Below, piece after piece: positions 23,418-39,374 of a stretch of DNA of 64,000 bases. Each line of letters begins with the position of its first letter. Position 1 is the stretch's first letter. The stretch is from Escherichia phage ukendt. The stretch lies in the sequence record NC_052661.1. The stretch is one strand, 5' to 3'. Made by a program: the position numbers and the translations under genes. The notes below the pieces were generated by a model. It did no database searches. It saw only the letters and a program-made list of their open reading frames with translations, and was not told the DNA's origin.

Positions 23418-23774
23418 ATGAAAAAATTAATCTTAGCCACATTGCTGGCTACCGTAAGCTTCACCACTTACGCTCAAAAATTTGTAGCAGTTAAAACGGA
23501 TATTGGTAAAGATGTTGTGATCACAGGCAACAAGTTTTACTATACACCTGGGAATGGTGTTCTAGAAGAGTGCAAAGATGTTGAGGCATATACAGGAAAA
23601 GAAGATAACACGGAACGTCCTTTTTATTCGATTATAGCTACTTGCAAAAATGAAATAGTAGCTATTAAACAATACAAAGATGCCCCTGGAGGAGAATACT
23701 TATTAATCAAGAATATTAAGAGTGAAAAAACTGCAAAGTTTACAGTAATTATTTTAAAAGGAGAAACGTTCTAA
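23418..23774 (+). CDS. secreted protein
   Basis: Start at ATG 23418 gives signal peptide MKKLILATLLATVSFTTYA. Confidence 0.5.
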   Translation: MKKLILATLLATVSFTTYAQKFVAVKTDIGKDVVITGNKFYYTPGNGVLEECKDVEAYTGKEDNTERPFYSIIATCKNEIVAIKQYKDAPGGEYLLIKNIKSEKTAKFTVIILKGETF

Positions 23775-24913
23775 TGAAATACACTATTTTTGGAGATGTG
23801 GCTGTTGTAAATAAGGAATATGGTGTTGAAGCTAATAAACTTCCTGCTGGAGTTTGGGTTGTCAACTGCGATCCGCACGGTAACTACTCTTTAGTGCGTG
23901 GCGAAAGTTTCTCTCTTCCGAACACTCTTTATGGGGAAACTAAAGACCGCGCCGCACATGTTATTAAAACATTTGCTCGTCGTAGTAAAGAAGGTAAAAA
24001 TACTGGGGTGTTACTGACAGGGACAAAGGGCAGTGGTAAGACGATGTTAGCTAAACTGATTAGCATGTCCCTAATGTCCACAGAAGGTTTAGGTATTCCA
24101 ACCATTTTGGTGACACAGCCTTACACAGATGCTGGATTCTTAGAATTTATGAGTAAAATTACAGATCGCGCTGTTGTTTTATTTGACGAGTTTGATAAAG
24201 TGTACGCTAAGAAAGAAGATCAGGAAGCACTGTTGACCTTGTTAGATGGAACAGGAAGTGGAAATAAACTTTACATCCTCACTAAAAATAGTGGCTATAT
24301 CTCGGAATATTTTGTAAACCGTCCTAGTCGTATCTATTACAGTTTCAATTACGATAAACTGTCTAGTGAAACTATGTTAGATTACTTGGATAAGAACTTG
24401 GTAAATAAAAAACACGTAGATAACTTCCAACGTTTATGGGATGTTAGCACAGAGTTGTCTTTCGATGTTATTCAAGGCATTGTAGAAGAATTGAATTTCT
24501 ATCCAAAAATGACTTTTAAAGAATGTCTTGAAATGATGGGTATTTCTTTAGGGAACGATGCTAAATGGAATGTGGCTTCTATCGTAGCTAATGGCAAAAC
24601 CTTGAAGGTGAATTGGATCAATAACTGGCACGACTTCACCCCTACTAAGTTTTTGTCGGGTGCTTGTTCCCTGAACATCTATCTACAAAGTTTGAAAGAT
24701 GGTGAAGTGGAAGCAATGGAAACCAACAGTTATGTTATCCTGGATGAAGATGGTGATCCACATATTGATCTATGTGCAACGGCTGATGGTCTAACTTGTG
24801 ATCTGATTGAAGGTGGTAAGATTCTGGTTATGAGCACTACACCAGGAAACACTCTGCGAGTGGTGCTGGAGCCTGTAACACAACGTTCCACCACACTGGG
24901 TAGCGTGTTCTAA
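23774..24913 (+). CDS. AAA-family ATPase
   Basis: 379 aa; Walker A GTKGSGKT and Walker B VVLFDEFD. Confidence 0.55.
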   Translation: MKYTIFGDVAVVNKEYGVEANKLPAGVWVVNCDPHGNYSLVRGESFSLPNTLYGETKDRAAHVIKTFARRSKEGKNTGVLLTGTKGSGKTMLAKLISMSLMSTEGLGIPTILVTQPYTDAGFLEFMSKITDRAVVLFDEFDKVYAKKEDQEALLTLLDGTGSGNKLYILTKNSGYISEYFVNRPSRIYYSFNYDKLSSETMLDYLDKNLVNKKHVDNFQRLWDVSTELSFDVIQGIVEELNFYPKMTFKECLEMMGISLGNDAKWNVASIVANGKTLKVNWINNWHDFTPTKFLSGACSLNIYLQSLKDGEVEAMETNSYVILDEDGDPHIDLCATADGLTCDLIEGGKILVMSTTPGNTLRVVLEPVTQRSTTLGSVF

Positions 24914-24918
24914 TAAAG

Positions 24919-24940
24919 ATGCCCCGCAAGGGGCATTTCT
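24919..24940 (+). terminator. rho-independent terminator
   Basis: ATGCCCC-GCAA-GGGGCAT hairpin then TTCTT, after the AAA ATPase gene. Confidence 0.5.
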
Positions 24941-24954
24941 TATAGGATGAAATC

Positions 24955-26163
24955 ATGAGTAAAGCTAAAAGTTGGGAAGAATATAAAGCAGAATGCGAGA
25001 TCATAGCTCTCTCTAAAGGATATAAAATTTTAGGCCATAAAGAATGGAAAGGGTGTGAGACTAAACTCCTGATAGAATGTCCTGTGCACGGTGTATGGGA
25101 TACTTGTAAAATATCTAACTTTAAAAGTGGGAAGTCTTGCCCTTCTTGTGGTGAATTAACAAAAAGGGAGAAGAGAACGAAGAGCAGAGAGGACCAAGAG
25201 AAAGAGTGTGAAGAAGAAGCGTTAAAAAGAGGTTGGCGCTTCTTGGGTATCTACGGAGAATGGCTGAAAGCTAAAAAGACACGAGTAATCTTACGTTGTG
25301 ATAGGGGTCACGAGTTTAACACATCTACCATAGACAACTTTAAGAATAATAAACAAGGTTGTCCAGTTTGTCGTTTAGAGGATATAGGTAAACACAATAA
25401 GCTTTCAGACGATCAGCACATACAAGATTTCATGAGTACGGGTGTGTTTCCCGAAGGCACTACCTTCACTAATACAGGGGAAAAAGCTGGGAGGAGCGAA
25501 ATACTTTGGAGTGTATTTTGCCCTATCTGTGCTATAGACGAGTTTTCCAAAGCTGGGGTAGGAACGGGATATTTTATCGGTAGAGGTAGTTCATTAAAAC
25601 AGGGTATGCGCCCTTGTCGTTGTTCTGCCAGTTACAAATATTCTGAAGAAGAGATGACATTTAGAGCAAAAAGTGACGTAGAACGTAGAGGGTACGTGTG
25701 GTTGGGGTGGATCGGGAAAGCTTCTATACTTGGGGATTTTGAATATGGTTGCAAGGATCATGGGAAACATGTGTGTAGTGCTAACAATTGGTTAAATAAG
25801 GGGTGTGGTTGCCCTGGTTGTGCAGGTATGAATCAACAACAAGCCTACATTAATTATATTTACGATGAGCAAGATATTATCTGTGCACTGAAGTTTGGTA
25901 TTGCTAATAATAGTAATCGCCGTATCAAAGAACAAAATAGTCGTAATGTGTTTACTATGAAACAGAGCCAAGTGTGGCACTTCCCTACTGTGAAGCAATG
26001 CAAAGATGCAGAAAAGCGTTGTAAGCGTGTCCTTCACACGGAAGCAGTGAGCAAATATTCTATGCCAGATGGCTACACAGAGACAGTGGAGTTATCTTGC
26101 ATGGCATCAATACAAAATATTTATAAACTTTATGGTGGAACATTACAGGAGGAAACATGTTAG
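24955..26163 (+). CDS. Cys-rich repeat protein with four zinc-ribbon-like modules
   Basis: 402 aa; four repeats of G(Y/W)xxLG...CxxGHxF...GCPxC pattern. Confidence 0.5.
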   Translation: MSKAKSWEEYKAECEIIALSKGYKILGHKEWKGCETKLLIECPVHGVWDTCKISNFKSGKSCPSCGELTKREKRTKSREDQEKECEEEALKRGWRFLGIYGEWLKAKKTRVILRCDRGHEFNTSTIDNFKNNKQGCPVCRLEDIGKHNKLSDDQHIQDFMSTGVFPEGTTFTNTGEKAGRSEILWSVFCPICAIDEFSKAGVGTGYFIGRGSSLKQGMRPCRCSASYKYSEEEMTFRAKSDVERRGYVWLGWIGKASILGDFEYGCKDHGKHVCSANNWLNKGCGCPGCAGMNQQQAYINYIYDEQDIICALKFGIANNSNRRIKEQNSRNVFTMKQSQVWHFPTVKQCKDAEKRCKRVLHTEAVSKYSMPDGYTETVELSCMASIQNIYKLYGGTLQEETC

Positions 26164-26522
26164 TTGACGTTCAAATTATGCGCAACGAAAGAATGGACTT
26201 CTTTGAAGCAGTAGAGAAACATCTGATCCGATGGGACTATGAATTTGTTCCTGCTGGATGTGGACCAGTAGAGCATTTAGCGGAAGACGACGATGTATAC
26301 ATGATCATTCGTCAAGTGTACCAGACAGACCAGTGTGAAGAAACTCCCGAACTGATTTTGTTTGAGTGTAAAGATCTTGCAAAATATTTTGACTATGGCG
26401 GAAAAGAGGGTCATAATCTCTCCAGATACAATAAACGTCTACTTATCTTAGACTACATGCGGAACAACAAACACAAACTCATCGACGCAGAAGCAGTTTA
26501 TGGCTACTGGTGGATGGACTAA
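26157..26522 (+). CDS. hypothetical protein
   Basis: 121 aa ORF. Confidence 0.5.
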   Translation: MLVDVQIMRNERMDFFEAVEKHLIRWDYEFVPAGCGPVEHLAEDDDVYMIIRQVYQTDQCEETPELILFECKDLAKYFDYGGKEGHNLSRYNKRLLILDYMRNNKHKLIDAEAVYGYWWMD

Positions 26523-27345: not shown

Positions 27346-27496
27346 TCCTATACAAACCCTTGTCTTTTTCAGTTTGCATCACTAGGATTCGATCTGAGTG
27401 GGTTCCTGAAGGTCTGCCAATAAGATTAAAGGTTATCTCAAATTCCCACTACCTATTATCTCAAAAATCCCTCAAATTATTTAAACTTTTTAAGAA

Positions 27497-27536
27497 TTTA
27501 CAAAAGTGAAAGTTGAAAACCAAAATTTAAAGTTTA
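27497..27536. repeat. direct repeat, copy 1 (TTTAAAGTTTA-containing unit)
   Basis: TTTACAAAAGTGAAAGTTGAAAACCAAAATTTAAAGTTTAG, imperfectly repeated at 27636. Confidence 0.5.
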
Positions 27537-27635
27537 GGAAAATTATCTTAAAATGTTAGATACAAAACAAAACTCAAAAGTCAAGGAAAATTTTAAAAAT
27601 TTTGCGCGCCCACAGTATTTAAAGTTTTTTTGCTT

Positions 27636-27675
27636 TTACAAAAATGAAAGTACAAAAGCAAAATTTAAAGTTTAC
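27636..27675. repeat. direct repeat, copy 2
   Basis: TTTACAAAAATGAAAGTACAAAAGCAAAATTTAAAGTTTAC. Confidence 0.5.
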
Positions 27676-27722
27676 AAAAATTTTTATGCAGGTGAAAATG
27701 AGAAGAGTTCTCATATGGAAAT

Positions 27723-27761: not shown

Positions 27762-27803
27762 TTGATTCTTATTTAATAAGGTAAATGATAATCATTCTCA
27801 TTT
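27762..27803 (+). promoter_or_regulatory. promoter with Fur-box-like operator across the -10 (site B)
   Basis: TTGATT, 18 nt, TGATAAT; palindrome AAATGATAATCATTCTCATTT matches the Fur consensus GATAATGATAATCATTATC at 16 of 19 positions. Confidence 0.5.
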
Positions 27804-28021
27804 AGAGAATGACGCGCAGGGGCGGTGTTTGTCTCGCGCTCCCGTGTCCCCTCGCCATGTAATAAGAATAACAGATCCAGCCAGGAAAGCAAGAGATTAT
27901 TTTATCTTTACATTTCTTTACAAATATATAGCGCCCAGCCTACCGGCGATCAACCTTCCAACCAGTGCCTCTGGTATGTTAGCCCCGCCTTTACGCCGTG
28001 GGGTGGCGCTTCCTCTTCTGT

Positions 28022-28437: not shown

Positions 28438-28496
28438 TTGACGTTCGCCAGGTGGCGGCATAATATTTACCACGTAGGGCGGCAATGGTGCCGCTC
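28438..28496 (+). promoter_or_regulatory. cassette promoter + 5' hairpin module
   Basis: TTGACG, 17 nt, TAATAT, then ACGTAGGGCGGCAATGGTGCCGCTCA hairpin. Confidence 0.55.
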
Positions 28497-28515
28497 ATTA
28501 TTTGGAGTTAAAATC

Positions 28516-28713
28516 ATGGCAACATTGCACATTGTGGCGAAAGCTGGACAAATAAACGTGGTAGTAAACGGTTTTACTGAGTTCAGTCATCCCCAGGATG
28601 ATCATGAAACGGTTTTATCTTTCATTGATTCACTGTTAGAAATGGGAGTAATTACAGAAGACCAGCACGCTACAAAATGCAAACGCGTTAATCAGATTGC
28701 AGGAATAGAATAA
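28516..28713 (+). CDS. cassette small protein
   Basis: 65 aa; own promoter-hairpin module; GGAG RBS. Confidence 0.5.
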   Translation: MATLHIVAKAGQINVVVNGFTEFSHPQDDHETVLSFIDSLLEMGVITEDQHATKCKRVNQIAGIE

Positions 28714-28720
28714 AAAGTAT

Positions 28721-28783
28721 TGACAACAACCAACAACCTGATAAGATGTATCACATAGGGCGGCGGAATGGTCCAGCCGCTCA
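28721..28783 (+). promoter_or_regulatory. cassette promoter + 5' hairpin module
   Basis: TTGACA, 16 nt, TAAGAT, then ACATAGGGCGGCGGAATGGTCCAGCCGC hairpin. Confidence 0.55.
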
Positions 28784-28805
28784 CAACAGAAGAGAGATTA
28801 TAATC

Positions 28806-29078
28806 ATGGCATCATATAGCGCAACAATGATCGTAGCTGGCACCACTGGTAAACCTATGAGCGGTGGCGGATCTTTCGCAAATATCAACATTGACGGGCG
28901 TTTATCCCTGGACGCAGCGATCACCGTGGCGCGGGAAACATTTAAGAAAGAATGTAAATTCAATAAACAAGATTATCTCGGTTTTGCTATTGAAAAAACC
29001 GCGCGTTTTGTTGATTATAAAAGCCCAAAAATGGTTGATACTACACTAAAAGCGCAAGATGTAGCGTTTTTGCTTTAA
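28806..29078 (+). CDS. cassette small protein
   Basis: 90 aa; promoter-hairpin module; start refined to 28806. Confidence 0.5.
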   Translation: MASYSATMIVAGTTGKPMSGGGSFANINIDGRLSLDAAITVARETFKKECKFNKQDYLGFAIEKTARFVDYKSPKMVDTTLKAQDVAFLL

Positions 29079-29082
29079 GGTT

Positions 29083-29136
29083 TGACATTAACGAATAATT
29101 TGTTAATATGTTACATAAAGCGGGAATAGTTCCCGC
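29083..29136 (+). promoter_or_regulatory. cassette promoter + 5' hairpin module
   Basis: TTGACA, 16 nt, TAATAT, then GCGGGAATAGTTCCCGC hairpin. Confidence 0.55.
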
Positions 29137-29154
29137 TATTTGTAAGGTGGTAGA

Positions 29155-29412
29155 ATGTTTTACATCAAATTAAAAGGTCACGTGATCGCGTTCAAGGATA
29201 ACGCTTTTTACAGATTAGCAAAGTATGCGTTAATACATCCCCATTATGTTTATATAAGGGGGCGTGATGAAATAAATATTTTTGATCAAACAACATGCGA
29301 GAACATCGAGATCCGCAAGGTTGGCGTACGTGACTATCGTACATCTTTCTACCCTTGCAAGGATTCAGCAAGTCTTTTTAAAGTATGCCGATTGTTGAAA
29401 AAAGGTGGTTAA
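29155..29412 (+). CDS. cassette small protein
   Basis: 85 aa; promoter-hairpin module. Confidence 0.5.
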   Translation: MFYIKLKGHVIAFKDNAFYRLAKYALIHPHYVYIRGRDEINIFDQTTCENIEIRKVGVRDYRTSFYPCKDSASLFKVCRLLKKGG

Positions 29413-29413
29413 T

Positions 29414-29971
29414 ATGGGCCGCGAATATGTGATCCAGTCTTGGGTAAAACATGAAGCAGATGATCCGCGCATCATTCCTGATTATCTTGTCGATGAATCC
29501 ACGGGCTATAGCGGGGAGCAAATAGGTAACAGATTAGCACGTAGTAACGGCAACGTAAAAGCGCGTTATGTGCGCCCTGGTTGGCTGGCAAATGGTAACG
29601 CTGATTTATCCAGTGCGGAAGATGCGAGCGACGGCGCGAAAGATAATCCCTTGTACAAAGTTGATCCGGCTTTTCGTGTCCTGGATGAATACCCCAACAA
29701 GATAGCGGCGCTTGATGAAGCACTAGAAAGTAAGCGCATCACCTGGACCGCTTACAACATGGCAAAAAACGTACTTGATGGTAAACTGATTCAAGCGGAG
29801 AGAAAATTAGCCAAAATTGCAGCCATAGCCCAGGAGGAAGACGAGGAGACAACGGAAGAGGAAGAGTACGAAGAGATCCCGCCGTTGTTGTGTGTTGATG
29901 CTTTTCCTGATTATCAGCCGACAGAGGAAGAAAAAAGGATCGCCCTAGAAAACTTTGAAAATAGTCTTTGA
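29414..29971 (+). CDS. cassette protein with highly acidic C-terminus
   Basis: 186 aa; EEDEETTEEEEYEE tail; co-transcribed with preceding gene. Confidence 0.5.
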   Translation: MGREYVIQSWVKHEADDPRIIPDYLVDESTGYSGEQIGNRLARSNGNVKARYVRPGWLANGNADLSSAEDASDGAKDNPLYKVDPAFRVLDEYPNKIAALDEALESKRITWTAYNMAKNVLDGKLIQAERKLAKIAAIAQEEDEETTEEEEYEEIPPLLCVDAFPDYQPTEEEKRIALENFENSL

Positions 29972-30026
29972 CATATCGCCGCCACTAGCATAATATTTAC
30001 CACGTAGGGCGGCAATGGTGCCGCTC
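29968..30026 (+). promoter_or_regulatory. cassette promoter + 5' hairpin module
   Basis: TTGACA, 17 nt, TAATAT, then GCGGCAATGGTGCCGC hairpin. Confidence 0.55.
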
Positions 30027-30053
30027 ATAGTGAAATTATACAAGAGGCTTACA

Positions 30054-30149
30054 ATGATTAATAAAGAAAATAGCTTGACGGTTGGAACGATTAACGGTAT
30101 CATTCTAGCCGTTCCATTTTGGATTGTAGTAGCGGTTATTATTTTCTAA
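30054..30149 (+). CDS. cassette hydrophobic peptide
   Basis: 31 aa; own promoter-hairpin module. Confidence 0.35.
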   Translation: MINKENSLTVGTINGIILAVPFWIVVAVIIF

Positions 30150-30157
30150 AAATATTC

Positions 30158-30218
30158 TTGACAACGTTTTTTAATCTGATAAGATGTATCACATAGGGCG
30201 GCGGAATACTTCCCCGCC
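30158..30218 (+). promoter_or_regulatory. cassette promoter + 5' hairpin module
   Basis: TTGACA, 16 nt, TAAGAT, then GGGCGGCGGAATACTTCCCCGCC hairpin. Confidence 0.55.
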
Positions 30219-30239
30219 AAAACAAAAAAGGGTAACACA

Positions 30240-30602
30240 ATGAGCAAGCAAATCAATACTATCATGTTTAATCTGGTATCTTTCCGCGATGATATGAAAA
30301 ATTTACCACGTGAAACGGTTGATATTCATGTTTCAGCTTATCGCGCCCTTATTGACATGTTACCGCTAAAACGTGATCAACATGCCGCTAATATGATGCT
30401 TAATGCTATGCTTAAAAAGATGATTCAAACGGATCTTACTCTGGCATATGAGTATCAAGGGCGCTTATATGCAACTTACAACAAGGCGGTACCTGGTCTG
30501 GGAAGTACCGAAGAGTTGCACGGCTTAAACCTGGATCAAAACACTTGGGATAGTATGCGCCGCGTTATGGTATGGGCCGAAAGCGGTAAAATTTACGAAT
30601 AA
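30240..30602 (+). CDS. cassette small protein
   Basis: 120 aa; promoter-hairpin module. Confidence 0.5.
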   Translation: MSKQINTIMFNLVSFRDDMKNLPRETVDIHVSAYRALIDMLPLKRDQHAANMMLNAMLKKMIQTDLTLAYEYQGRLYATYNKAVPGLGSTEELHGLNLDQNTWDSMRRVMVWAESGKIYE

Positions 30603-30608
30603 AAACGG

Positions 30609-30668
30609 TTGACACTGTTTAAACTTCTGGTATAGTTTACCACATAGGGCGGGAAGTGGTTTCCCGCC
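30609..30668 (+). promoter_or_regulatory. cassette promoter + 5' hairpin module
   Basis: TTGACA, about 17 nt, TATAGT, then GGCGGGAAGTGGTTTCCCGCC hairpin. Confidence 0.55.
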
Positions 30669-30690
30669 AACAATTAAAAAGGTTATCATC

Positions 30691-31056
30691 ATGGCTATTA
30701 ATATTAATGTTTCCTCTTATGCTACCCTGGCTGACACGGCTAAAATTGAATTATCCAGCATTGAGGCGGTGCATATTAGCGCCCGTCGCTGGTTTCAACA
30801 GTCCTACGGTAACACATATTTTTCTTTAATGGTTGACGTTGAGATCGGCGGTAAACTGATCGAGGTGGTTAACGTTCCGTTTCAATATGGTTATGGTGAT
30901 CATTTTGATACCGTCGCCCTGGAAGAATTTAGCAAGGTCGTTAATATGGAAGGTAAAGAGTTTTCACGCGGCGCGTATCTTTCCCGTTTTTGCCGTGACA
31001 ATGGGATCACTGTATACAGTCATGCAAGCGATGTTAAACGTAAAAAAGATCTATAA
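30691..31056 (+). CDS. cassette small protein
   Basis: 121 aa; promoter-hairpin module. Confidence 0.5.
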   Translation: MAININVSSYATLADTAKIELSSIEAVHISARRWFQQSYGNTYFSLMVDVEIGGKLIEVVNVPFQYGYGDHFDTVALEEFSKVVNMEGKEFSRGAYLSRFCRDNGITVYSHASDVKRKKDL

Positions 31057-31063
31057 AAAGCAT

Positions 31064-31121
31064 TGACAGCACGAATAAAAAGAGTAAACTGTATTACATA
31101 GAGAGCGGGAACACTTCCCGC
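31064..31121 (+). promoter_or_regulatory. cassette promoter + 5' hairpin module
   Basis: TTGACA, 16 nt, TAAACT, then GCGGGAACACTTCCCGC hairpin. Confidence 0.55.
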
Positions 31122-31145
31122 CTCACTGAAAAAGAGAGAAAAATC

Positions 31146-31385
31146 ATGGCTAAATCTAAAATGTACAACGGTCACAAAAACAAAACTCATTGGAATGTAA
31201 GCCTTTGGATTAATAACGATGAATCATTGTATCGGTTTGCATTGGGATTGATCAATGAGTGCGGTAATAAAGATCAGGCGGCTGATTTAATGTGCTACCG
31301 TTTGAAACAGGATGGAATCACTACAACGCCAGACGGCTTTAAGTATAGTAAAACTGCAATCCGCGCCGCTATGGTTGGAATGTAA
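31146..31385 (+). CDS. cassette small protein
   Basis: 79 aa; promoter-hairpin module. Confidence 0.5.
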   Translation: MAKSKMYNGHKNKTHWNVSLWINNDESLYRFALGLINECGNKDQAADLMCYRLKQDGITTTPDGFKYSKTAIRAAMVGM

Positions 31386-31394
31386 TAAAAACAG

Positions 31395-31454
31395 TTGACA
31401 ACGTTTAAAATTAGTGTAAGATGTATCACATAGGGCGGGAAGTGGTTTCCCGCC
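31395..31454 (+). promoter_or_regulatory. cassette promoter + 5' hairpin module
   Basis: TTGACA, 16 nt, TAAGAT, then GGCGGGAAGTGGTTTCCCGCC hairpin. Confidence 0.55.
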
Positions 31455-31476
31455 AACAACAGAGAGATTAAAGATT

Positions 31477-31704
31477 ATGGCTATCAATATTGTTCGTGTA
31501 TCCGGCACCGTTGGCAGTTCCCAGGTTGTAGCAGTTATCACAGAGAAGAAAGGGGATGATCTTCACTCTTCCTTGAATAGCTGGGCGGTCGCTAACTTCG
31601 GGCAATGGTCGAGCGTTGAGTACATCGAATCCTACCAGGTGCCGACGATTAGCCTAACCGATCTCAACGTTGATCGCTTGTTGTGCCTGGATGAATTAAT
31701 CTGA
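31477..31704 (+). CDS. cassette small protein
   Basis: 75 aa; promoter-hairpin module. Confidence 0.5.
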   Translation: MAINIVRVSGTVGSSQVVAVITEKKGDDLHSSLNSWAVANFGQWSSVEYIESYQVPTISLTDLNVDRLLCLDELI

Positions 31705-31714
31705 AAAAAGATTG

Positions 31715-31772
31715 TTGACACCGGAAAGAAAAAGAGTAGAATATATTACATAGGGCGGCAATGGTGCCGCTC
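31715..31772 (+). promoter_or_regulatory. cassette promoter + 5' hairpin module
   Basis: TTGACA, 16 nt, TAGAAT, then GCGGCAATGGTGCCGC hairpin. Confidence 0.55.
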
Positions 31773-31795
31773 ACAACAGAAGAGAGATTATCACG

Positions 31796-32011
31796 ATGGC
31801 TAATATCCGCACTTTACTGAAAAATGCAAGTCAAGTTTTATTTTCAGATGACGAGTATTTCAATAAAGACATTACAGGCGTGAAAAATTTAAAAGACGTG
31901 AAGGATGTTATCGGTATTCGTGGATCTTTACGTAAAGGTGATTACTATGGTAACAAGGTGCAATATAAACTGTCAAAGGATTACAATTTTACTTTGACAA
32001 TTATTTCATAA
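31796..32011 (+). CDS. cassette small protein
   Basis: 71 aa; promoter-hairpin module. Confidence 0.5.
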   Translation: MANIRTLLKNASQVLFSDDEYFNKDITGVKNLKDVKDVIGIRGSLRKGDYYGNKVQYKLSKDYNFTLTIIS

Positions 32012-32017
32012 AACCGC

Positions 32018-32077
32018 TTGCAATACTGCAAAAATAAAGTAAACTATATTCATCAAGGCGGGGAATGGTCCGCCGCC
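32018..32077 (+). promoter_or_regulatory. cassette promoter + 5' hairpin module
   Basis: TTGCAA, 16 nt, TAAACT, then GGCGGGGAATGGTCCGCCGCC hairpin. Confidence 0.5.
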
Positions 32078-32101
32078 TAACAAAGAGAAGAGGAAAACAT
32101 C

Positions 32102-32275
32102 ATGATCACTTTCGCTACCCGTGAAGCCGCTCGCAACGTTGCACGTAAAGTTAACGCCGCCAACCTGGGCGCTACACTTAAAGCCCCGGTGAAAGATGAA
32201 TCAGGCAAATGGATCTTCCCTGGTCTGCGTCATGCTGACAAGTTAGGTACTTTAAGCCTTAAAAATAATCGTTGA
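32102..32275 (+). CDS. cassette small protein
   Basis: 57 aa ORF not in track; promoter-hairpin module. Confidence 0.4.
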   Translation: MITFATREAARNVARKVNAANLGATLKAPVKDESGKWIFPGLRHADKLGTLSLKNNR

Positions 32276-32309
32276 CTTTTCGTTATAGCGCCTTACAATG
32301 GGCGCTATA
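32272..32309 (+). promoter_or_regulatory. variant cassette promoter with palindrome across the -10
   Basis: TTGACT, 16 nt, TACAAT, embedded in TATAGCGCC...GGCGCTATA inverted repeat. Confidence 0.45.
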
Positions 32310-32342
32310 GAGAAGAGAAACCACTATTAACAAGGAAACATC

Positions 32343-32564
32343 ATGATTACTTTTGCTATTGTCGCCGTTGTTGCTGGTCAGGTTTACGTAAATGATACAT
32401 TCACCACAGAAGACAAGGCAGCAGGAGACATCACCGCCGCTTATAATGAGTGCAAGGCAGTAGAAAGGATGTTAGCGCCTTGTATGCTAATGAGTGAACG
32501 CCAGGACGGAATAACAGTATTTACTAACATTGAAACAGGGTACCAAATGGTAGTAACAAAATAA
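32343..32564 (+). CDS. cassette small protein
   Basis: 73 aa; variant promoter with palindrome. Confidence 0.5.
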   Translation: MITFAIVAVVAGQVYVNDTFTTEDKAAGDITAAYNECKAVERMLAPCMLMSERQDGITVFTNIETGYQMVVTK

Positions 32565-32567
32565 AGC

Positions 32568-32624
32568 TTGACACCGATTTAATTTTTAGTAAACTGTTAC
32601 ACGTAGGGCGGGAATAGTTCCCGC
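32568..32624 (+). promoter_or_regulatory. cassette promoter + 5' hairpin module
   Basis: TTGACA, 16 nt, TAAACT, then GCGGGAATAGTTCCCGC hairpin. Confidence 0.55.
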
Positions 32625-32643
32625 TCAAAAAGAGAGAAAGACC

Positions 32644-32997
32644 ATGAAAGCACAAAATGCAATTAAAGAGTACATCCTTGCCGCTATCGATTTTAATGAT
32701 TACGGTATTACAACCGAAAAAGAGAAGATCGCGGAATTGATGCGCCGTTTTAATTCCGAGTACTGGTACCCTGATAACCAATCACGTTTTAATTATAGTA
32801 TTGTTAAAGCACTTGCATCATGGTTACAAGGCTTGCCATCAGATATCAATATCGCTTTCGAATATTGGGAAATTGATCGCCTGTTAACATCCTGGGGATA
32901 CATTAAAGAGAATAGCAGCGATGATAAAATCCAACGAGAAAGGGAAAATTATTGGCTTTATATTGCAGGCGTGATCCTTGCTTGCTCTTATGAATGA
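32644..32997 (+). CDS. cassette small protein
   Basis: 117 aa; promoter-hairpin module. Confidence 0.5.
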   Translation: MKAQNAIKEYILAAIDFNDYGITTEKEKIAELMRRFNSEYWYPDNQSRFNYSIVKALASWLQGLPSDINIAFEYWEIDRLLTSWGYIKENSSDDKIQRERENYWLYIAGVILACSYE

Positions 32998-33003
32998 TAA
33001 ACC

Positions 33004-33058
33004 TTGACAATTTTACAAAACAGTTTAAATTAACAATATAGCGGCAATGGTGCCGCTC
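33004..33058 (+). promoter_or_regulatory. cassette promoter + 5' hairpin module
   Basis: TTGACA, A/T-rich -10 region, then GCGGCAATGGTGCCGC hairpin. Confidence 0.5.
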
Positions 33059-33076
33059 ATATGAAGAGGAAACAAA

Positions 33077-33223
33077 ATGAATACATCTAATCGCGCAGAA
33101 AAAATTCAATCTTCCAAGATCCGCAAGGCCTGGAACGAGGAAGTGATCCGCAAAGGCGACAAGCGCAATAAAACAAAGCGCGGGAAGAGTGACAAATATA
33201 ATTGGATGGATTTAGAGGATTAA
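33077..33223 (+). CDS. cassette small basic protein
   Basis: 48 aa Lys/Arg-rich; promoter-hairpin module; followed by terminator. Confidence 0.4.
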   Translation: MNTSNRAEKIQSSKIRKAWNEEVIRKGDKRNKTKRGKSDKYNWMDLED

Positions 33224-33230
33224 CATAACA

Positions 33231-33257
33231 AGGGCGCATCAAGCGCCCTTTCTTTTT
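33231..33257 (+). terminator. rho-independent terminator inside the cassette array
   Basis: AGGGCGC-ATCAA-GCGCCCT followed by TTCTTTTT. Confidence 0.6.
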
Positions 33258-33278
33258 ACATGTAGAGGATAAACAAAA

Positions 33279-33464
33279 ATGATTTTAAACGAGCTTAAAA
33301 CAGCCTACAACGCAACATTAAAAATAGCCGTGCGTTACCGTGATGCGTACGGTTTTATCGCGCAGGGCGTGATCCTGGGCTTTTCTGACGATGGTTTGAT
33401 CTATGTTGATGCACATCACAACAAGGTTAAACCGGAAAACGTTATCAATATAAAATATCTTTAA
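33279..33464 (+). CDS. cassette small protein
   Basis: 61 aa; RBS GAGGA. Confidence 0.45.
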   Translation: MILNELKTAYNATLKIAVRYRDAYGFIAQGVILGFSDDGLIYVDAHHNKVKPENVINIKYL

Positions 33465-33470
33465 AAGTGG

Positions 33471-33527
33471 TTGACACCATAACCGGACCTGTTAAACTGT
33501 ATTACATCAGGCGGGGAATAGTTCCCC
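33471..33527 (+). promoter_or_regulatory. cassette promoter + 5' hairpin module
   Basis: TTGACA, 16 nt, TAAACT, then GGGGAATAGTTCCCC hairpin. Confidence 0.55.
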
Positions 33528-33550
33528 CACCATACAAAAAGGTAAATATT

Positions 33551-33757
33551 ATGATCACCGCAAAACAAGAAAAAATCATTATCGACGTTGCAGCCGTTGC
33601 CGCTATTGCTATTATTGGATCTTATTATGATACCCGTTTCCCGTCGGCTATGCATGAGATCGCCGCCGTTGCATCAGTCGGCGTGCTGTTTTACGTTGGT
33701 AAACGCTATTTATCACCAATGATTAACAAGCTGACACCGTGGAAAAATAAAGGTTGA
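33551..33757 (+). CDS. cassette small membrane protein
   Basis: 68 aa; promoter-hairpin module; start refined to 33551. Confidence 0.5.
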   Translation: MITAKQEKIIIDVAAVAAIAIIGSYYDTRFPSAMHEIAAVASVGVLFYVGKRYLSPMINKLTPWKNKG

Positions 33758-33810
33758 TCCTGTTTTATATTGTGTTATAGTTATCGTGTAGGGCGGCAAT
33801 GGTGCCGCGC
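33754..33810 (+). promoter_or_regulatory. cassette promoter + 5' hairpin module
   Basis: TTGATC, 16 nt, TATAGT, then GCGGCAATGGTGCCGC hairpin. Confidence 0.5.
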
Positions 33811-33829
33811 CCCCTTTGAGGATGAAATC

Positions 33830-34114
33830 ATGAGTAAAGCTAACACCGTGCTAATGTTTTCCCTGATTAATGATCCCGCTTACTTGTCCAACATGACGCA
33901 GGAGGGTAACACATTAACGGCAACATTCACCAATAAGCTTGACCGAGTGATCATCATCTCACTGAAAACAGTTAGTAAAGGCTTTTACTCGTTAGCTTAT
34001 CATTGGATCACCGATACCGATGAGACAAGCCAGGACTATAGCGCCCCTTTCCCTGAATCAATGGCACGGGAGATCATCGCCGCCGTTGTAAATGATGGTT
34101 TGTTTACTGCATAA
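33830..34114 (+). CDS. cassette small protein
   Basis: 94 aa; shares 25-nt initiation region with gene at 24955. Confidence 0.5.
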   Translation: MSKANTVLMFSLINDPAYLSNMTQEGNTLTATFTNKLDRVIIISLKTVSKGFYSLAYHWITDTDETSQDYSAPFPESMAREIIAAVVNDGLFTA

Positions 34115-34131
34115 ATAATTTAGAAAAAGGC

Positions 34132-34188
34132 TTGCAATCATTTTGAGATAGTGTATATTTAATTCATAGGGCGGCGGGAATAGTTCCC
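34132..34188 (+). promoter_or_regulatory. cassette promoter + 5' hairpin module
   Basis: TTGCAA, 16 nt, TATATT, then GGGAATAGTTCCC hairpin. Confidence 0.5.
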
Positions 34189-34211
34189 AAAGCAAACGAG
34201 AGGATTACACG

Positions 34212-34330
34212 ATGAGCAAGTACACAGTAGAATACACGGTAGAAAATCCGGCAGTATCCGAAGGTAAAAAGATGACATTTGCCATCAGTATAATCGCTTT
34301 CGTTGTCACTATCTTATCAATCATCTTATA
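34212..34330 (+). CDS. cassette hydrophobic peptide
   Basis: 39 aa with C-terminal TM segment; promoter-hairpin module. Confidence 0.35.
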
Positions 34331-34341
34331 AGGTGCACACC

Positions 34342-34503
34342 ATGAAAACAACAGATATTATCAAAGAGATCGCCCTTGCCGCTGGCGTTGAGATCGAGGA
34401 AGTGATCGCGCTCAATCTTACAGAAAACGATCTGCGCAACTATGAAGCGGAAAGCGTGAAAGCAAGCGGTGCGATCCTGGCATATAATCCGGCTAACAAG
34501 TAA
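34342..34503 (+). CDS. cassette small protein
   Basis: 53 aa ORF. Confidence 0.35.
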   Translation: MKTTDIIKEIALAAGVEIEEVIALNLTENDLRNYEAESVKASGAILAYNPANK

Positions 34504-34512
34504 GGGGATAAC

Positions 34513-34623
34513 ATGAATCCGAAAGATATGCAAGCATGGAAAGGGTACGACGATCTGAGCGCCTTGCGTAATAAGTCCAGCCGTAACCTTAGACGATTGC
34601 AAGCAAAGAAAAAGAAAAAATAG
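34513..34623 (+). CDS. cassette small basic protein
   Basis: 36 aa ending KKKKK. Confidence 0.3.
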   Translation: MNPKDMQAWKGYDDLSALRNKSSRNLRRLQAKKKKK

Positions 34624-34624
34624 T

Positions 34625-34682
34625 TTGACAAGTCCGCTTAATCTGATAATATGTATCTTGTAGGGCGGCAATGGTGCCGCTC
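34625..34682 (+). promoter_or_regulatory. cassette promoter + 5' hairpin module
   Basis: TTGACA, 16 nt, TAATAT, then GCGGCAATGGTGCCGC hairpin. Confidence 0.55.
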
Positions 34683-34701
34683 ACAAGAAGAGAGAAAAAT
34701 C

Positions 34702-34986
34702 ATGAAAATCACAAAAAGCCTAACTAATTATGCAGCACGTCGCGGATTATGTTTAACCGTTGAAAACTTAGGGAAAGAAGACTTTTTGTGTTTTTGGGAG
34801 CTTGAAAACGATTGCGAGTGGATGTTTTCCTATTCTATCTGCGAAGATCAAAACGGTTGTTTGTTAACCTGGCGCGGTAATATTTATTTACCGGAAGAAA
34901 TTAAAGAGGAATTACCAGGTACGATCATGACAGAGAGACAGCTTAAGGAAATGATTAATTTTGTAGGGCAAAACATTAAAAAATAA
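34702..34986 (+). CDS. cassette small protein
   Basis: 94 aa; promoter-hairpin module. Confidence 0.5.
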   Translation: MKITKSLTNYAARRGLCLTVENLGKEDFLCFWELENDCEWMFSYSICEDQNGCLLTWRGNIYLPEEIKEELPGTIMTERQLKEMINFVGQNIKK

Positions 34987-34987
34987 T

Positions 34988-35050
34988 TTGACAGCACGCA
35001 AACAACGTAGTAAAGTTTACCACATAGGGCGGCGGAATGGTCCACCGCTC
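34988..35050 (+). promoter_or_regulatory. cassette promoter + 5' hairpin module
   Basis: TTGACA, 17 nt, TAAAGT, then GGGCGGCGGAATGGTCCACCGC hairpin. Confidence 0.55.
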
Positions 35051-35071
35051 ACAACAGAAGAGAAACAAATC

Positions 35072-35242
35072 ATGATCCCGACTATGTTTTATGTATCGCG
35101 CAAAGGTCACAATATTTTTTGGTCTGAAGATTTAAATGAAGCCATGACGTTTGCCCGTGATCGTGTTGCTATCGGTGGCGTTAACATCACCGTAACCGAT
35201 GAAAATGGCATTGAATACTATAACGGCGACGATGAAGAGTAA
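35072..35242 (+). CDS. cassette small protein
   Basis: 56 aa; promoter-hairpin module. Confidence 0.45.
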   Translation: MIPTMFYVSRKGHNIFWSEDLNEAMTFARDRVAIGGVNITVTDENGIEYYNGDDEE

Positions 35243-35249
35243 TTAATGA

Positions 35250-35267
35250 GGCGGGGAGTACCCCGCC
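35250..35267 (+). promoter_or_regulatory. cassette-type GC hairpin without recognisable -35/-10
   Basis: GGCGGGGAGTACCCCGCC, 20 nt upstream of the ATG at 35287. Confidence 0.4.
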
Positions 35268-35286
35268 GTCAATAAAGAGGTAAATC

Positions 35287-35556
35287 ATGAAAATATCATT
35301 GGACGTTGCAATCAAGGCCATCGAATCCGGTTACATCCTGGTAAAAGATGATAAGGCTAAAATAGTGCATCATGTTAACAAGGAAACAGGCGAGAGCATG
35401 ATCACATATAAAGCCGCCTACTTTCTCCAATCAGTAGCAGATCCGCGCGTACAACGCCAGGTTACAGCGGCTATTGCTAAAAAATTATGTGCTTTACAGG
35501 GTGCAAGTTTTAACGAGATTGCCCCGTGTTTTGAGTGGTCAAGCTTGAAAAAATAA
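35287..35556 (+). CDS. cassette small protein
   Basis: 89 aa; preceded by GC hairpin only. Confidence 0.5.
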   Translation: MKISLDVAIKAIESGYILVKDDKAKIVHHVNKETGESMITYKAAYFLQSVADPRVQRQVTAAIAKKLCALQGASFNEIAPCFEWSSLKK

Positions 35557-35557
35557 T

Positions 35558-35619
35558 TTGACAACAATTATAAATCGGGTAGAATGTATTTCGTAGGGCG
35601 GGGCAATAAGGCAACGCCC
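35558..35619 (+). promoter_or_regulatory. cassette promoter + 5' hairpin module
   Basis: TTGACA, 16 nt, TAGAAT, then GGGCG...CGCCC hairpin. Confidence 0.5.
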
Positions 35620-35634
35620 ATTAATGAGGGTAGA

Positions 35635-35742
35635 ATGATGTTAGAGAAAATTTTCACGGTTGTAATAGTGGGCCTGGCGTTATCGGTTGGAGTGGTTGCA
35701 ACTATGGCTAACATGATCCTATCTTCCCACGGTATCGGCTAA
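35635..35742 (+). CDS. cassette hydrophobic peptide
   Basis: 35 aa single TM; promoter-hairpin module. Confidence 0.35.
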   Translation: MMLEKIFTVVIVGLALSVGVVATMANMILSSHGIG

Positions 35743-35752
35743 GGTGAAACAA

Positions 35753-35968
35753 ATGATCACGAATAAGACAGGTAAAACGGAATTTTTACGCGGCTTGCAA
35801 GTTGGTAAACCTGAGATCTGGCATTGTACTAAATCCGCGCATAATGAAATGAAAGATTTTACCGCTACTTTACAACGTGTTAAAATATCTATCACACAGA
35901 AAAAAGCCTTGTTAGTAGTAGAAAACGAGATCCCGCAAACTATTATTATTGTCGAGCGTACAGCATGA
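35753..35968 (+). CDS. cassette small protein
   Basis: Start refined to ATG 35753. Confidence 0.45.
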   Translation: MITNKTGKTEFLRGLQVGKPEIWHCTKSAHNEMKDFTATLQRVKISITQKKALLVVENEIPQTIIIVERTA

Positions 35969-36351
35969 AAACAGAAATCATTATTGAAATCATCAACGGT
36001 TATAAAGAAGCCTTTATTTTTGCTGAATCAGCAAGGGATCATGAAGGTAATTTTATTGAAAACTTAGACGATTATGATTTTTCTCCTAGCGCGGACGAAC
36101 GGATCGCCCAGGATGTAACAGCCTTTATTAATGCTAATCTTGCCGCTATCTCTGAGGCAATGAGCGACGGCGCAACAGCCAACCAGATCGGGAATGATTT
36201 ACATTTTACCCGTAACGGTCACGGCGTAGGCTTTTGGGATCGCCCTGAAATATACACCACTAACACGGCGAACCGCCTAACCAATGCAGCTAAGTTTATG
36301 CCGAACGTGTCGGCTTACATTGGTGAAGATAATTTGATTTATATTGAATAA
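35965..36351 (+). CDS. cassette small protein
   Basis: 128 aa; translationally coupled. Confidence 0.5.
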   Translation: MKTEIIIEIINGYKEAFIFAESARDHEGNFIENLDDYDFSPSADERIAQDVTAFINANLAAISEAMSDGATANQIGNDLHFTRNGHGVGFWDRPEIYTTNTANRLTNAAKFMPNVSAYIGEDNLIYIE

Positions 36352-36357
36352 AAAGTA

Positions 36358-36415
36358 TTGACACAGATCGCCAGTGTGCTAATATTTACCACGTAGGGCG
36401 GCAATGGTGCCGCCG
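36358..36415 (+). promoter_or_regulatory. cassette promoter + 5' hairpin module
   Basis: TTGACA, 16 nt, TAATAT, then GGCGGCAATGGTGCCGCC hairpin. Confidence 0.55.
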
Positions 36416-36432
36416 ATAATGAGGAAAGTAAA

Positions 36433-38520: not shown

Positions 38521-38843
38521 GTAATGACGCTTACACTTATTGCGCTGGCTTATTATTAGCATTATATGTAATTACCAAGATCATAACATTAGCGCAATAA
38601 CAATAATCATTGTGGTAATTACAAGATGAAATCATTAGCAAGATGAATAATTGCACGTAGCAACATGAGCGAATAGCGACAGGTTGCATAGTGTGCACAT
38701 AGTGTATAAACATACAAGAAAATAAAGGCTAATCTTTTGGGGGCGAATACTATCGCGTAGCGATATGTTGAGCACCTTCTCTTAAACGTAAATAAAATCA
38801 GAAAATTCTTGATTTATTTTAGTTTTTATGTTAATAAACGTTT

Positions 38844-38864
38844 AAATAATAATCATTCTCATAT
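38844..38864. promoter_or_regulatory. Fur-box-like operator (site C)
   Basis: AAATAATAATCATTCTCATAT shares the core AATCATTCTCAT with sites B and D. Confidence 0.4.
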
Positions 38865-39002
38865 AAATAATAGTCTGCTTGTCATGAGCGGGATTAGTTG
38901 ACAATGTTCCGTCATATGATGAAGTTGCCAAACCATTGATAAATAAGTGTTTGTGTGATTTATAATCAAGTGGCCCACCTTGTCGCTATGTTGGCATGAG
39001 CC

Positions 39003-39044
39003 TTGCATAAGTCATTGAATACGAATGATAATTATTCTCATTCG
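39003..39044 (+). promoter_or_regulatory. promoter with Fur-box-like operator across the -10 (site D)
   Basis: TTGCAT, 17 nt, TGATAAT; palindrome CGAATGATAATTATTCTCATTCG. Confidence 0.5.
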
Positions 39045-39374
39045 CATGATATTTGGGAATTGTCGCTGCGTGGACCTGACGGCCCGAAAATTCGCGTTAA
39101 GCACTTCTTACGTATGCGCCATGATTTTTGCCATATGATATTGATTCTATTAGATATTCTTGCCATGAAACAAGGTGTGTCGAAATAATCTCTCCCCGTA
39201 GATATTTTGGGTTACTTTTTATACAAGAGTGGGGTGTCAAAAATAATCGGTATATATGGGATAATTGATAGGAATCCCCTATGGTAATTCGATTGTAATT
39301 CCTTAAGATTGATCGTATGATGTTGGTGATTGATGATTGCCATGAAAGATGGCTAACGATGAGAGGAGATTGTC

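Follow-up and report, generated by a model that had tools for sequence, protein, structure and literature searches.

Two copies of a 25-nucleotide start region

The window analyzed here, a 64,000-nt stretch of Escherichia phage ukendt (NC_052661.1), comes from a Phapecoctavirus of the subfamily Stephanstirmvirinae. Gene A (24955-26163, + strand) is a 402-amino-acid endonuclease open reading frame that lies between an AAA ATPase gene (23774-24913, +) and a gene for a 121-amino-acid protein (phrog_24465; 26157-26522, +). Gene B (33830-34114, +; 94 amino acids, phrog_10737) is a small early gene. The 25-mer AGGATGAAATCATGAGTAAAGCTAA occurs in the window as two exact plus-strand copies, copy A at 24944-24968 and copy B at 33819-33843. 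The first-pass annotation had located copy B at these coordinates, while its position for copy A (24945-24969) needs to be moved one base earlier.

Both copies share a common layout, consisting of an SD sequence (AGGA), a 7-nt spacer (TGAAATC), the ATG, and AGT AAA GCT AA. In copy A, the SD occupies 24944-24947 and the 7-nt spacer leads to the ATG at 24955, codons 2-4, and two further nucleotides of the endonuclease gene; copy B likewise covers the SD, the spacer, the ATG at 33830, codons 2-4, and two nucleotides of gene B. The encoded proteins accordingly start with MSKAK (gene A) and MSKAN (gene B), and both translations confirmed the earlier observation that they share an MSKA start and are otherwise unrelated. 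Identity between the two loci stops sharply at both ends of the 25-mer; the largest extension is 28/30 over CTTAT/CTTTG plus the 25-mer, in which the CTT two bases further 5' matches.

A GC-rich hairpin lies 5-7 nt 5' of each copy, at 24917-24938 (dG -15.3) and at 33791-33811 (dG -13.1). The two copies had been described as both following a GC hairpin, and a hairpin is indeed present in each case, but it is not a shared one, as the two differ in sequence and in role (see below). RNA structure that would sequester the SD was absent at either copy, with the 25-mer unpaired in the centroid structures, and the 81-nt context of the gene B start gave a folding z of +0.8. Rfam returned 0 matches across the whole window, and we found no structure or other motif associated with the 25-mer.

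The sequence is not one that recurs by chance. A search of the whole window returned exactly two copies, with no third even at 3 mismatches, and 0/100 dinucleotide shuffles matched it. We compared the -11 to +14 segments of all 117 predicted gene starts in the window pairwise. The A/B pair matched at 25/25 positions, and the next best pair, at 21/25, consisted of tandem paralogs (starts at 32102 and 32343); below it, a single pair reached 20 and four pairs reached 19. Under a position-specific model of this genome's start regions, ~4e-7 identical start pairs are expected, and the best match within each of 300 simulated gene sets was typically 19/25 and in no case above 23/25. Identity of A and B by chance or simple convergence is excluded. 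The string AAATCATG is a common combination of spacer and start in this genome, a preference that the start-site model already covers.

Among 50,697 phage records searched with a 30-nt query, the motif was found only at gene B and at the start of one class of endonuclease allele, here termed ESCO5-type, and all of the genomes concerned were Phapecoctavirus. Only four of these records carry it at two places. IMG/VR contained 0 matches to the exact 25-mer and also 0 when M was allowed at position 7, and a 24-mer search of metagenomes gave 2 matches, both at ordinary gene-B loci. Around locus A the window is 99.6% identical to ESCO5, and around locus B it is closest to phAPEC8_ev052. ESCO5 has copy A and lacks gene B entirely, so the two copies need not co-occur; in most phages with copy A, copy B differs at position 7.

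The endonuclease cassette at locus A

The gene at locus A had been annotated as encoding a Cys-rich protein. It belongs to phrog_681 ("endonuclease"), and its product has four CapR-type CxxC zinc-finger repeats and a C-terminal GIY-YIG/T5orf172-like domain. The repeats are zinc-finger DNA-binding domains of the CapR/DUF723 type: CapR (PF21817) scored 80.6 bits over 4 stretches, and among homologs CapR was present in 30/30 and DUF723 in 11/30. The C-terminal domain is of the GIY-YIG type (T5orf172), with a score against Pfam T5orf172 of 16.6 bits, below the 20-bit cut-off. An exhaustive family search (2,895 representatives) yielded proteins that start with MPKAKTWEEYKAECE, MTKGKTWEQYK, and MAKTKSWEEH. 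From these starts, the M-x-K-A-K start of gene A appears to be native to the endonuclease family, in which the N-terminus follows the pattern M-x-K-A-K-S/T-W.

The flanking AAA ATPase and 121-amino-acid genes are kept in all sampled relatives, and the sequence between them varies. In phiWec188/190 the site is empty, with no endonuclease between the two genes: downstream of the ATPase stop come the same hairpin, CTCATATAC, and then GGAGGAAAATT-ATG of the 121-amino-acid gene, which thus comes directly after the hairpin. The window and phiWec188 have the hairpin and CTxATA in common, after which phiWec188 enters the SD of the downstream gene. Relative to this empty site, the endonuclease cassette is an insertion spanning about 24944-26147 (+). 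The insertion and the 25-mer begin at one and the same base, the 25-mer making up the first 25 nt of the insertion; on the right, the insertion ends directly ahead of GGAGGAAAC, which serves the downstream gene as its SD. For its stop and the four codons preceding it, gene A relies on resident sequence, which here overlaps the downstream gene's SD and ATG.

Where the site is occupied, it holds different alleles. The ESCO5-type allele (402 amino acids) is found in this window, ESCO5, anhysbys, ECO340P2, and iGC_PHA_EC001, and an ESCO13-type allele (486 amino acids) is found in roughly 25 phages; further alleles occur in phiWec179 (337 amino acids), nepoznato (394 amino acids), and KKP 3954 (a split version). 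The gene is therefore a free-standing intergenic insertion that is present in some phages and absent from others, with alleles of 337-486 amino acids at one site. Breakpoint analysis placed the end of the homology between the ESCO13-type allele and the window exactly at 24943/24944. An N-terminal zinc-finger segment at 24969-~25402 (+), which comprises the first two repeats, is confined to the ESCO5-type allele, and its next closest relative is 44% identical in amino acid sequence. Copy A is limited to this allele class, the other endonuclease alleles having different start regions, and the 25-mer is invariant across the five ESCO5-type genomes. We also considered whether the long 5' leader of ESCO13 is left over from the start region of the gene downstream, an idea that we rejected because 79/500 shuffles scored as well.

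The allele of phiWec179 offers a recognizable homolog of copy A. Its junction at locus A contains TAGGGGGGATGATGAGGGCTAAAAG, and in the comparison with the window, identity was 28/30 over the hairpin and its tail, 16/25 over the 25-mer (with 4 gap columns), and ~20/25 over the next 25 nt; over the central 17 nt of the 25-mer it was 8/17. This local dip in identity is statistically weak (9/25 differences, where the flanks predict 2-6). The right end of the 25-mer, AAAGCTAA (residues K-A-K), together with AGG and ATGAG, was probably already present in the endonuclease gene.

The hairpin upstream of copy A, GAUGCCCCGCAAGGGGCAUU with a U-rich tail (24917-24938, +; z -4.4), is of the terminator type and lies 3' of the ATPase gene. 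The annotations of ASO2A and Schickermooser call it a terminator, and it is resident sequence, being present also in the endonuclease-free phiWec188. We found no promoter-like site between 24913 and 24955. The endonuclease, having no promoter of its own, would be reached by read-through of this upstream terminator hairpin.

Free-standing T5orf172/GIY-YIG homing endonucleases with repeated CapR/DUF723 zinc fingers have been described (Barth, Dunham & Seed 2023; PMC10448857), as has CapR itself (Netter et al. 2021; PMC8096241). Gene A resembles them in its four CapR repeats, its C-terminal GIY-YIG fold, and its intergenic, free-standing position, and also in its presence/absence pattern, allele mosaicism, variable repeat number, and location at a boundary of exchange between phages. 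Judged from these sequence features, gene A is a homing-endonuclease-like gene, free-standing, mobile, and mosaic, and the junction at locus A is thereby better explained than by a cysteine-rich protein gene as such. Genes of this kind are recombination-prone and located at exchange boundaries (PMC10448857). In the published cases, domains are swapped and repeats recombine within the endonuclease genes themselves (PMC10448857), whereas at gene A the exchange concerns a translation-initiation region and involves an unrelated gene of the same genome that does not encode an endonuclease.

Gene B and its promoter/stem-loop array

Gene B is preceded by a regulatory module (33754-33818, +) that consists of a promoter, the GTAGGGCGGCAATGGTGCCGCGCC stem-loop, and a CCCTTTG linker. 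The promoter is sigma-70-like (TTGATC-16-TATAGT, with an extended TG; 33754-33781), and the promoters of sibling modules score 10-11/12. The stem-loop (33788-33811; the hairpin proper at 33791-33811) has the form GGGCGGCAATGGTGCCGC(G)CC, a motif that recurs in 14 modules. Together these modules make up an array at 28474-36420 (+), in which 14 units of promoter, stem-loop, and SD each stand before small ORFs. They follow a common plan: a TTGACA-16/17-TAAGAT-like promoter, a stem-loop (A/G)TAGGGCGG...CCGC, a purine-rich SD, and an ATG. The 20-mer of the gene B stem-loop is annotated in the phAPEC8 record as a PHIRE "promoter". The gene B stem-loop runs into CCCTTTG with no U-tract, and the sole sibling that passed a terminator scan is the one at 28477-28496. 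The stem-loop sits right after the -10 box, a position suggestive of a hairpin at the 5' end of the mRNA more than of a terminator.

Records of more than 60 related phages contain the gene B junction. Most phages have AGGATGCAATC... (24/25 identical to the 25-mer), their variant being GGATGCAATC, and the version with A at position 7 (25/25) is found in the window, B15, and vB_Ec-G1. Other variants are ATGCGT in SF1-1 and, in the outgroups, GGATCAAATCATGGTT in phiWec179 and GGATCAAACTATGGTT in phiWec188. These are ordinary substitutions that track the divergence of the flanks (92% and 87%). Variable sites number 6/25 in the 25-mer and 18/50 downstream, and the 25-mer did not stand out at locus B for its conservation. 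An indel in a C-run 5' of gene B shifts the frame of an upstream ATG, which identifies 33830 as the real start of gene B. Copy B is therefore the native copy: more than 60 relatives conserve the junction, and its divergence keeps pace with that of the flanking sequence. Conversion of gene B by copy A within this genome was considered as the source of the A, in place of C, at position 7 and rejected, since B15, vB_Ec-G1, and SF1-1 have this A without an ESCO5-type endonuclease and the outgroups carry it too.

Related phages differ from the window by rearrangements within this array. In ESCO5, window positions 31794-35547 (about ten small genes, gene B included) are replaced by one different small gene. 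Both breakpoints of this 3.75-kb replacement, 31793 and 35548, lie in modules, one directly after a module's stem-loop/SD and the other at the promoter of the next module. SF1-1 has a 558-bp deletion (33249-33806) joined at the 6-nt sequence GCGCCC, which is common to the arm of a terminator hairpin and the arm of a module stem-loop. Module-bounded shuffling thus occurs inside the array, and very short homologies demonstrably suffice for recombination of these phages in this region. The first-pass annotation had taken the shared 25-mer as support for cassette shuffling between the array and the rest of the genome. The breakpoints in ESCO5 and SF1-1 support module-bounded shuffling within the array, but not between the array and locus A, where only 25 nt are held in common and the promoter and stem-loop of gene B are absent.

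Modules of a similar design are known from other phages: promoter-early stem-loops (PeSLs) are mobile regulatory cassettes of T4-type phages (Arbiol et al. 2010, PMC2839356; Comeau et al. 2014, PMC4122927). The gene B module and its 13 siblings are like PeSLs in combining a strong sigma-70-like promoter, a GC-rich stem-loop, and a 3' SD and start, and the array resembles them in its dense repeats before small ORFs (14 modules within 8 kb) and in the indel breakpoints found there. Unlike PeSLs, the array belongs to Stephanstirmvirinae and not to T4-type phages, which places it outside the described PeSL set, and its stem-loop lies uniformly just 3' of the -10 box and mostly lacks a U-tract. By analogy, the region upstream of gene B would work like a PeSL outside the T4-type family. 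The region upstream of copy A does not have a PeSL-type promoter with the array stem-loop, and the A/B identity is unlike a PeSL transfer in that it comprises the last 25 nt of one module and not a module.

Origin of the shared start region

Short-patch ectopic gene conversion and microhomology-mediated template switching between dispersed sequences belong to general recombination biology, and the 25-mer has the features of such a patch: a perfect short tract with sharp edges and unrelated flanks, with AGG, ATGAG, and GCTAA at its edges. It stands at the short end of the documented range of tracts, and no donor or recipient intermediates were observed. That a recombination footprint joins two unrelated genes, as the first-pass annotation had proposed, is borne out by an identity that is beyond chance and coincides with the 5' boundary of a cassette that is both mobile and mosaic. 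We lean, with some reserve, towards ectopic recombination in which a short patch passed recently from B to A, a step eased by microhomology in the start of the endonuclease gene. The translation-initiation region of gene B would have been copied onto the 5' edge of the endonuclease cassette, 8.9 kb upstream, as a gene-conversion patch or through template switching in the course of break repair or of recombination-dependent replication.

Before the transfer, the endonuclease start was probably already B-like (AGG ... ATGAG ... GCTAA), and these pre-existing microhomologies AGG, ATGAG, and GCTAA would have offered crossover points. An ancestral form like that of phiWec179, ...TAGG-GGGGATG-ATGAGG-GCTAAAAGTTGG, would have become ...TAGG-ATGAAATC-ATGAGTAAA-GCTAAAAGTTGG, with ~17 nt between AGG and GCTAA in effect overwritten. 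As the K-A-K end is probably native to the endonuclease, the transferred patch may itself be only ~17 nt. The endonuclease would now begin with the SD, the spacing, and the first four codons of gene B. A patch of 17-25 nt with just 3-8-nt flanking homologies is nonetheless an unusual product. Selection for a good start region could have aided in fixing or keeping the identity.

The direction from B to A is suggested by the B junction being old, genus-wide, and evolving in place, with copy A confined to one allele class, and by the local dip in identity at the phiWec179 endonuclease start, the homolog of copy A. Copy A is exactly the main-clade B allele (the A variant of the window, B15, and vB_Ec-G1), and not an outgroup B allele. 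The transfer would be recent, since an old common origin would require both copies to have stayed unchanged while the phiWec lineages gained 3 and 9 differences. Searches for a pre-transfer allele, that is, an ESCO5-type N-terminus behind another junction, did not find one: a word-indexed protein search with the N-terminal 153 amino acids of the endonuclease gave nothing, a degenerate WEEYKAEC pattern matched 9 proteins, all unrelated, and the pattern KSWEEYKAEC had 0 matches in metagenomes. The direction consequently rests on parsimony, and the junction of phiWec179 could be the derived state.

The shared material might instead have moved between the array and locus A by PeSL-like, module-mediated shuffling of a hairpin together with a start region. 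Gene B does lie in a true array of promoter, stem-loop, and SD modules, indels between related phages do have their breakpoints in those modules, a hairpin precedes both copies at a similar distance, and published PeSLs carry the SD and start codon on their 3' side (PMC2839356). We nevertheless consider this unlikely, as only 25 nt are in common, the promoter and stem-loop of gene B are missing at A, and the hairpin at A, which the empty-site allele has as resident sequence, is different in sequence. Neither the array of the window nor the last 48.6 kb of ABPW7 contains an endonuclease copy, and no array gene came along with the 25-mer to locus A.

An opposite direction or an old common origin, with the 25-mer native to the endonuclease and acquired by gene B (for example, from an endonuclease remnant before B), we hold to be less likely again. 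It would fit the family-native M-x-K-A-K start, and since the phiWec179 start is homologous to copy A, an A-like 5' end has some antiquity. The B junction, however, occurs in more than 60 phages, most of them without the ESCO5-type allele, as well as in the outgroup phiWec phages, where its divergence matches that of the flanks without indels. Copy A, moreover, equals the derived main-clade B allele, and an old origin would need both copies to have stayed unchanged while the phiWec lineages diverged, as noted above.

Selection might also have kept the 25-mer identical, either as the site of a translational regulator or as an operator or secondary target of the zinc-finger endonuclease, a possibility that we regard as doubtful and place below the two preceding ones. 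I-TevI, a GIY-YIG homing endonuclease, binds an operator before its own gene that resembles its homing site. Gene A is like I-TevI in being a modular GIY-YIG endonuclease with the sequence before its own gene duplicated elsewhere in the genome; unlike in I-TevI, the second copy is away from the insertion site, and the element overlaps the start region and not a promoter. Autorepression by I-TevI is mentioned in the Discussion of PMC10448857. The identity does coincide exactly with the start region, all five ESCO5-type genomes have the 25-mer unchanged, and the endonuclease has four CapR-type DNA-binding repeats, CapR being a domesticated repressor (PMC8096241). At locus B, on the other hand, the 25-mer is conserved no more than its surroundings (the 6/25 and 18/50 variable sites given above), position 7 differs in copy B of most copy-A phages, ESCO5 has A without B, other endonuclease alleles have unrelated start regions, and no structure or other motif accompanies the 25-mer. 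The more specific idea, by analogy, of a portable control element recognized at both genes by the endonuclease or a phage translational regulator seems to us a remote one. If it held, endonuclease expression would be coupled or auto-limited, following an I-TevI-like operator logic; alternatively, the gene B start would be a secondary cleavage or recombination hotspot that seeds array rearrangements.

Coincidence, in which two strong start regions of an A-rich phage with common N-terminal codons became identical by luck, is scarcely credible: AAATCATG is frequent, AGGA, AAA, and GCT are common choices, and K-A-K is native to the endonuclease family, but only ~4e-7 identical pairs are expected, the simulated maxima were typically 19/25 and never above 23/25, the next real pair (21/25) is paralogous, and there is no third occurrence in 50,697 phage genomes.

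A short patch copied from gene B to the endonuclease cassette would be an instance of known phenomena, namely, mosaic endonuclease junctions and very-short-homology recombination in lytic phages. We found no description in the literature of an endonuclease and an unrelated resident gene exchanging a translation-initiation region in these phages. Current understanding is not overturned, and the 25-mer is a neat but unremarkable vestige of recombination in phages. It provides a base-pair-resolved case of a selfish endonuclease cassette that appears to have picked up the ribosome-binding site and first codons of a resident gene. It also indicates that recombination in therapeutic-candidate coliphages (Phapecoctavirus) works on a few to a few dozen bases of homology. 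As 25-nt direct repeats 8,875 bp apart, the two copies are a potential substrate for deletion or mini-circle formation. Differences between closely related phages are located at the endonuclease site and in the promoter/stem-loop array.

Modular architecture of the early-gene array

The array comprises 14 near-identical regulatory modules on the plus strand (window 28474-36420), each upstream of small ORFs. In every module, a strong sigma-70-like promoter is followed by an (A/G)TAGGGCGG…CCGC stem-loop and then by a purine-rich Shine-Dalgarno sequence (SD). The stem-loop begins ~7 nt past the -10 box and probably lies at the extreme 5' terminus of every early mRNA; in this position, it could serve as an mRNA stabilizer or a protein-binding site. 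A 20-mer of this stem-loop is labeled as a PHIRE "promoter" in the phAPEC8 record, and an Rfam search of the whole window returned no match for it. The 25-mer shared by the starts of the endonuclease gene and the 94-aa early gene (gene B) contains a 3-codon mini-ORF, ATG AAA TCA TGA (24947-24958 and 33822-33833), whose stop overlaps the main start codon (ATGA). This mini-ORF lacks a dedicated SD and is unlikely to be relevant.

Two further sets of repeats were found in the window. A palindromic AT-rich motif, TAAATGATAATCATTCTCATTTA, is present in three copies (27782-27810, 38843-38871, and 39022-39050) and resembles the Escherichia coli Fur-box consensus (GATAATGATAATCATTATC), which could point to host-iron-regulated phage promoters. 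The second set is a pair of AT-rich direct repeats, each 72 nt long, that share 82% identity and lie 138 bp apart (27473-27544 and 27611-27682) in an ORF-poor stretch with the GTP cyclohydrolase II gene on one side and the array on the other.

Array rearrangements in related phages

Compared with the window, Shigella phage SF1-1 (L017) carries a 558-bp deletion (window 33249-33806) that removes two small genes along with the promoter of gene B. The join falls within a 6-nt sequence, GCGCCC, that is common to an arm of a terminator hairpin (33230-33250) and an arm of the module stem-loop, and the deletion thus places gene B directly behind a terminator hairpin. In ESCO5, ~3.75 kb (window 31794-35547) is exchanged for one different 64-aa ORF (L001 19792-19978), and some ten small genes are lost, gene B among them. 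As the breakpoints lie just past the stem-loop/SD of one module and at the promoter of the next, this exchange represents a module-bounded cassette replacement.

Three Phapecoctavirus records, "Campylobacter phage B15" (MG065650.1), "Acinetobacter phage ABPW7" (OP562383.1), and "Pseudomonas phage PsgM04F" (OR584014.1), are nearly identical to coliphages, and their host labels look doubtful.

The endonuclease cassette and its alleles

Compared with both the ESCO5-type and ESCO13-type alleles, the phiWec179 endonuclease (L003 3055-4068) has an ESCO5-like 5' end (MRAKSWEEY) and an ESCO13-like body, which meet at the conserved K-S/T-W-E-E/Q-Y opening of a zinc-finger repeat. This allele looks like a chimera, and its structure is consistent with recombination between repeats.

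The ends of the endonuclease cassette are defined by phiWec188 and phiWec190, which carry natural endonuclease-free "empty-site" alleles (phiWec188 L034 201-300 versus window 24914-26160). The last four codons and stop of the endonuclease gene, GAG GAA ACA TGT TAG, derive from resident sequence (window 26148-26163) that doubles as the start region of the 121-aa gene downstream, supplying both its SD (GGAGGAAAC) and its ATG. Because the 3' end of the endonuclease is encoded by its neighbor's SD and ATG, the start region of the 121-aa gene is preserved by the insertion.
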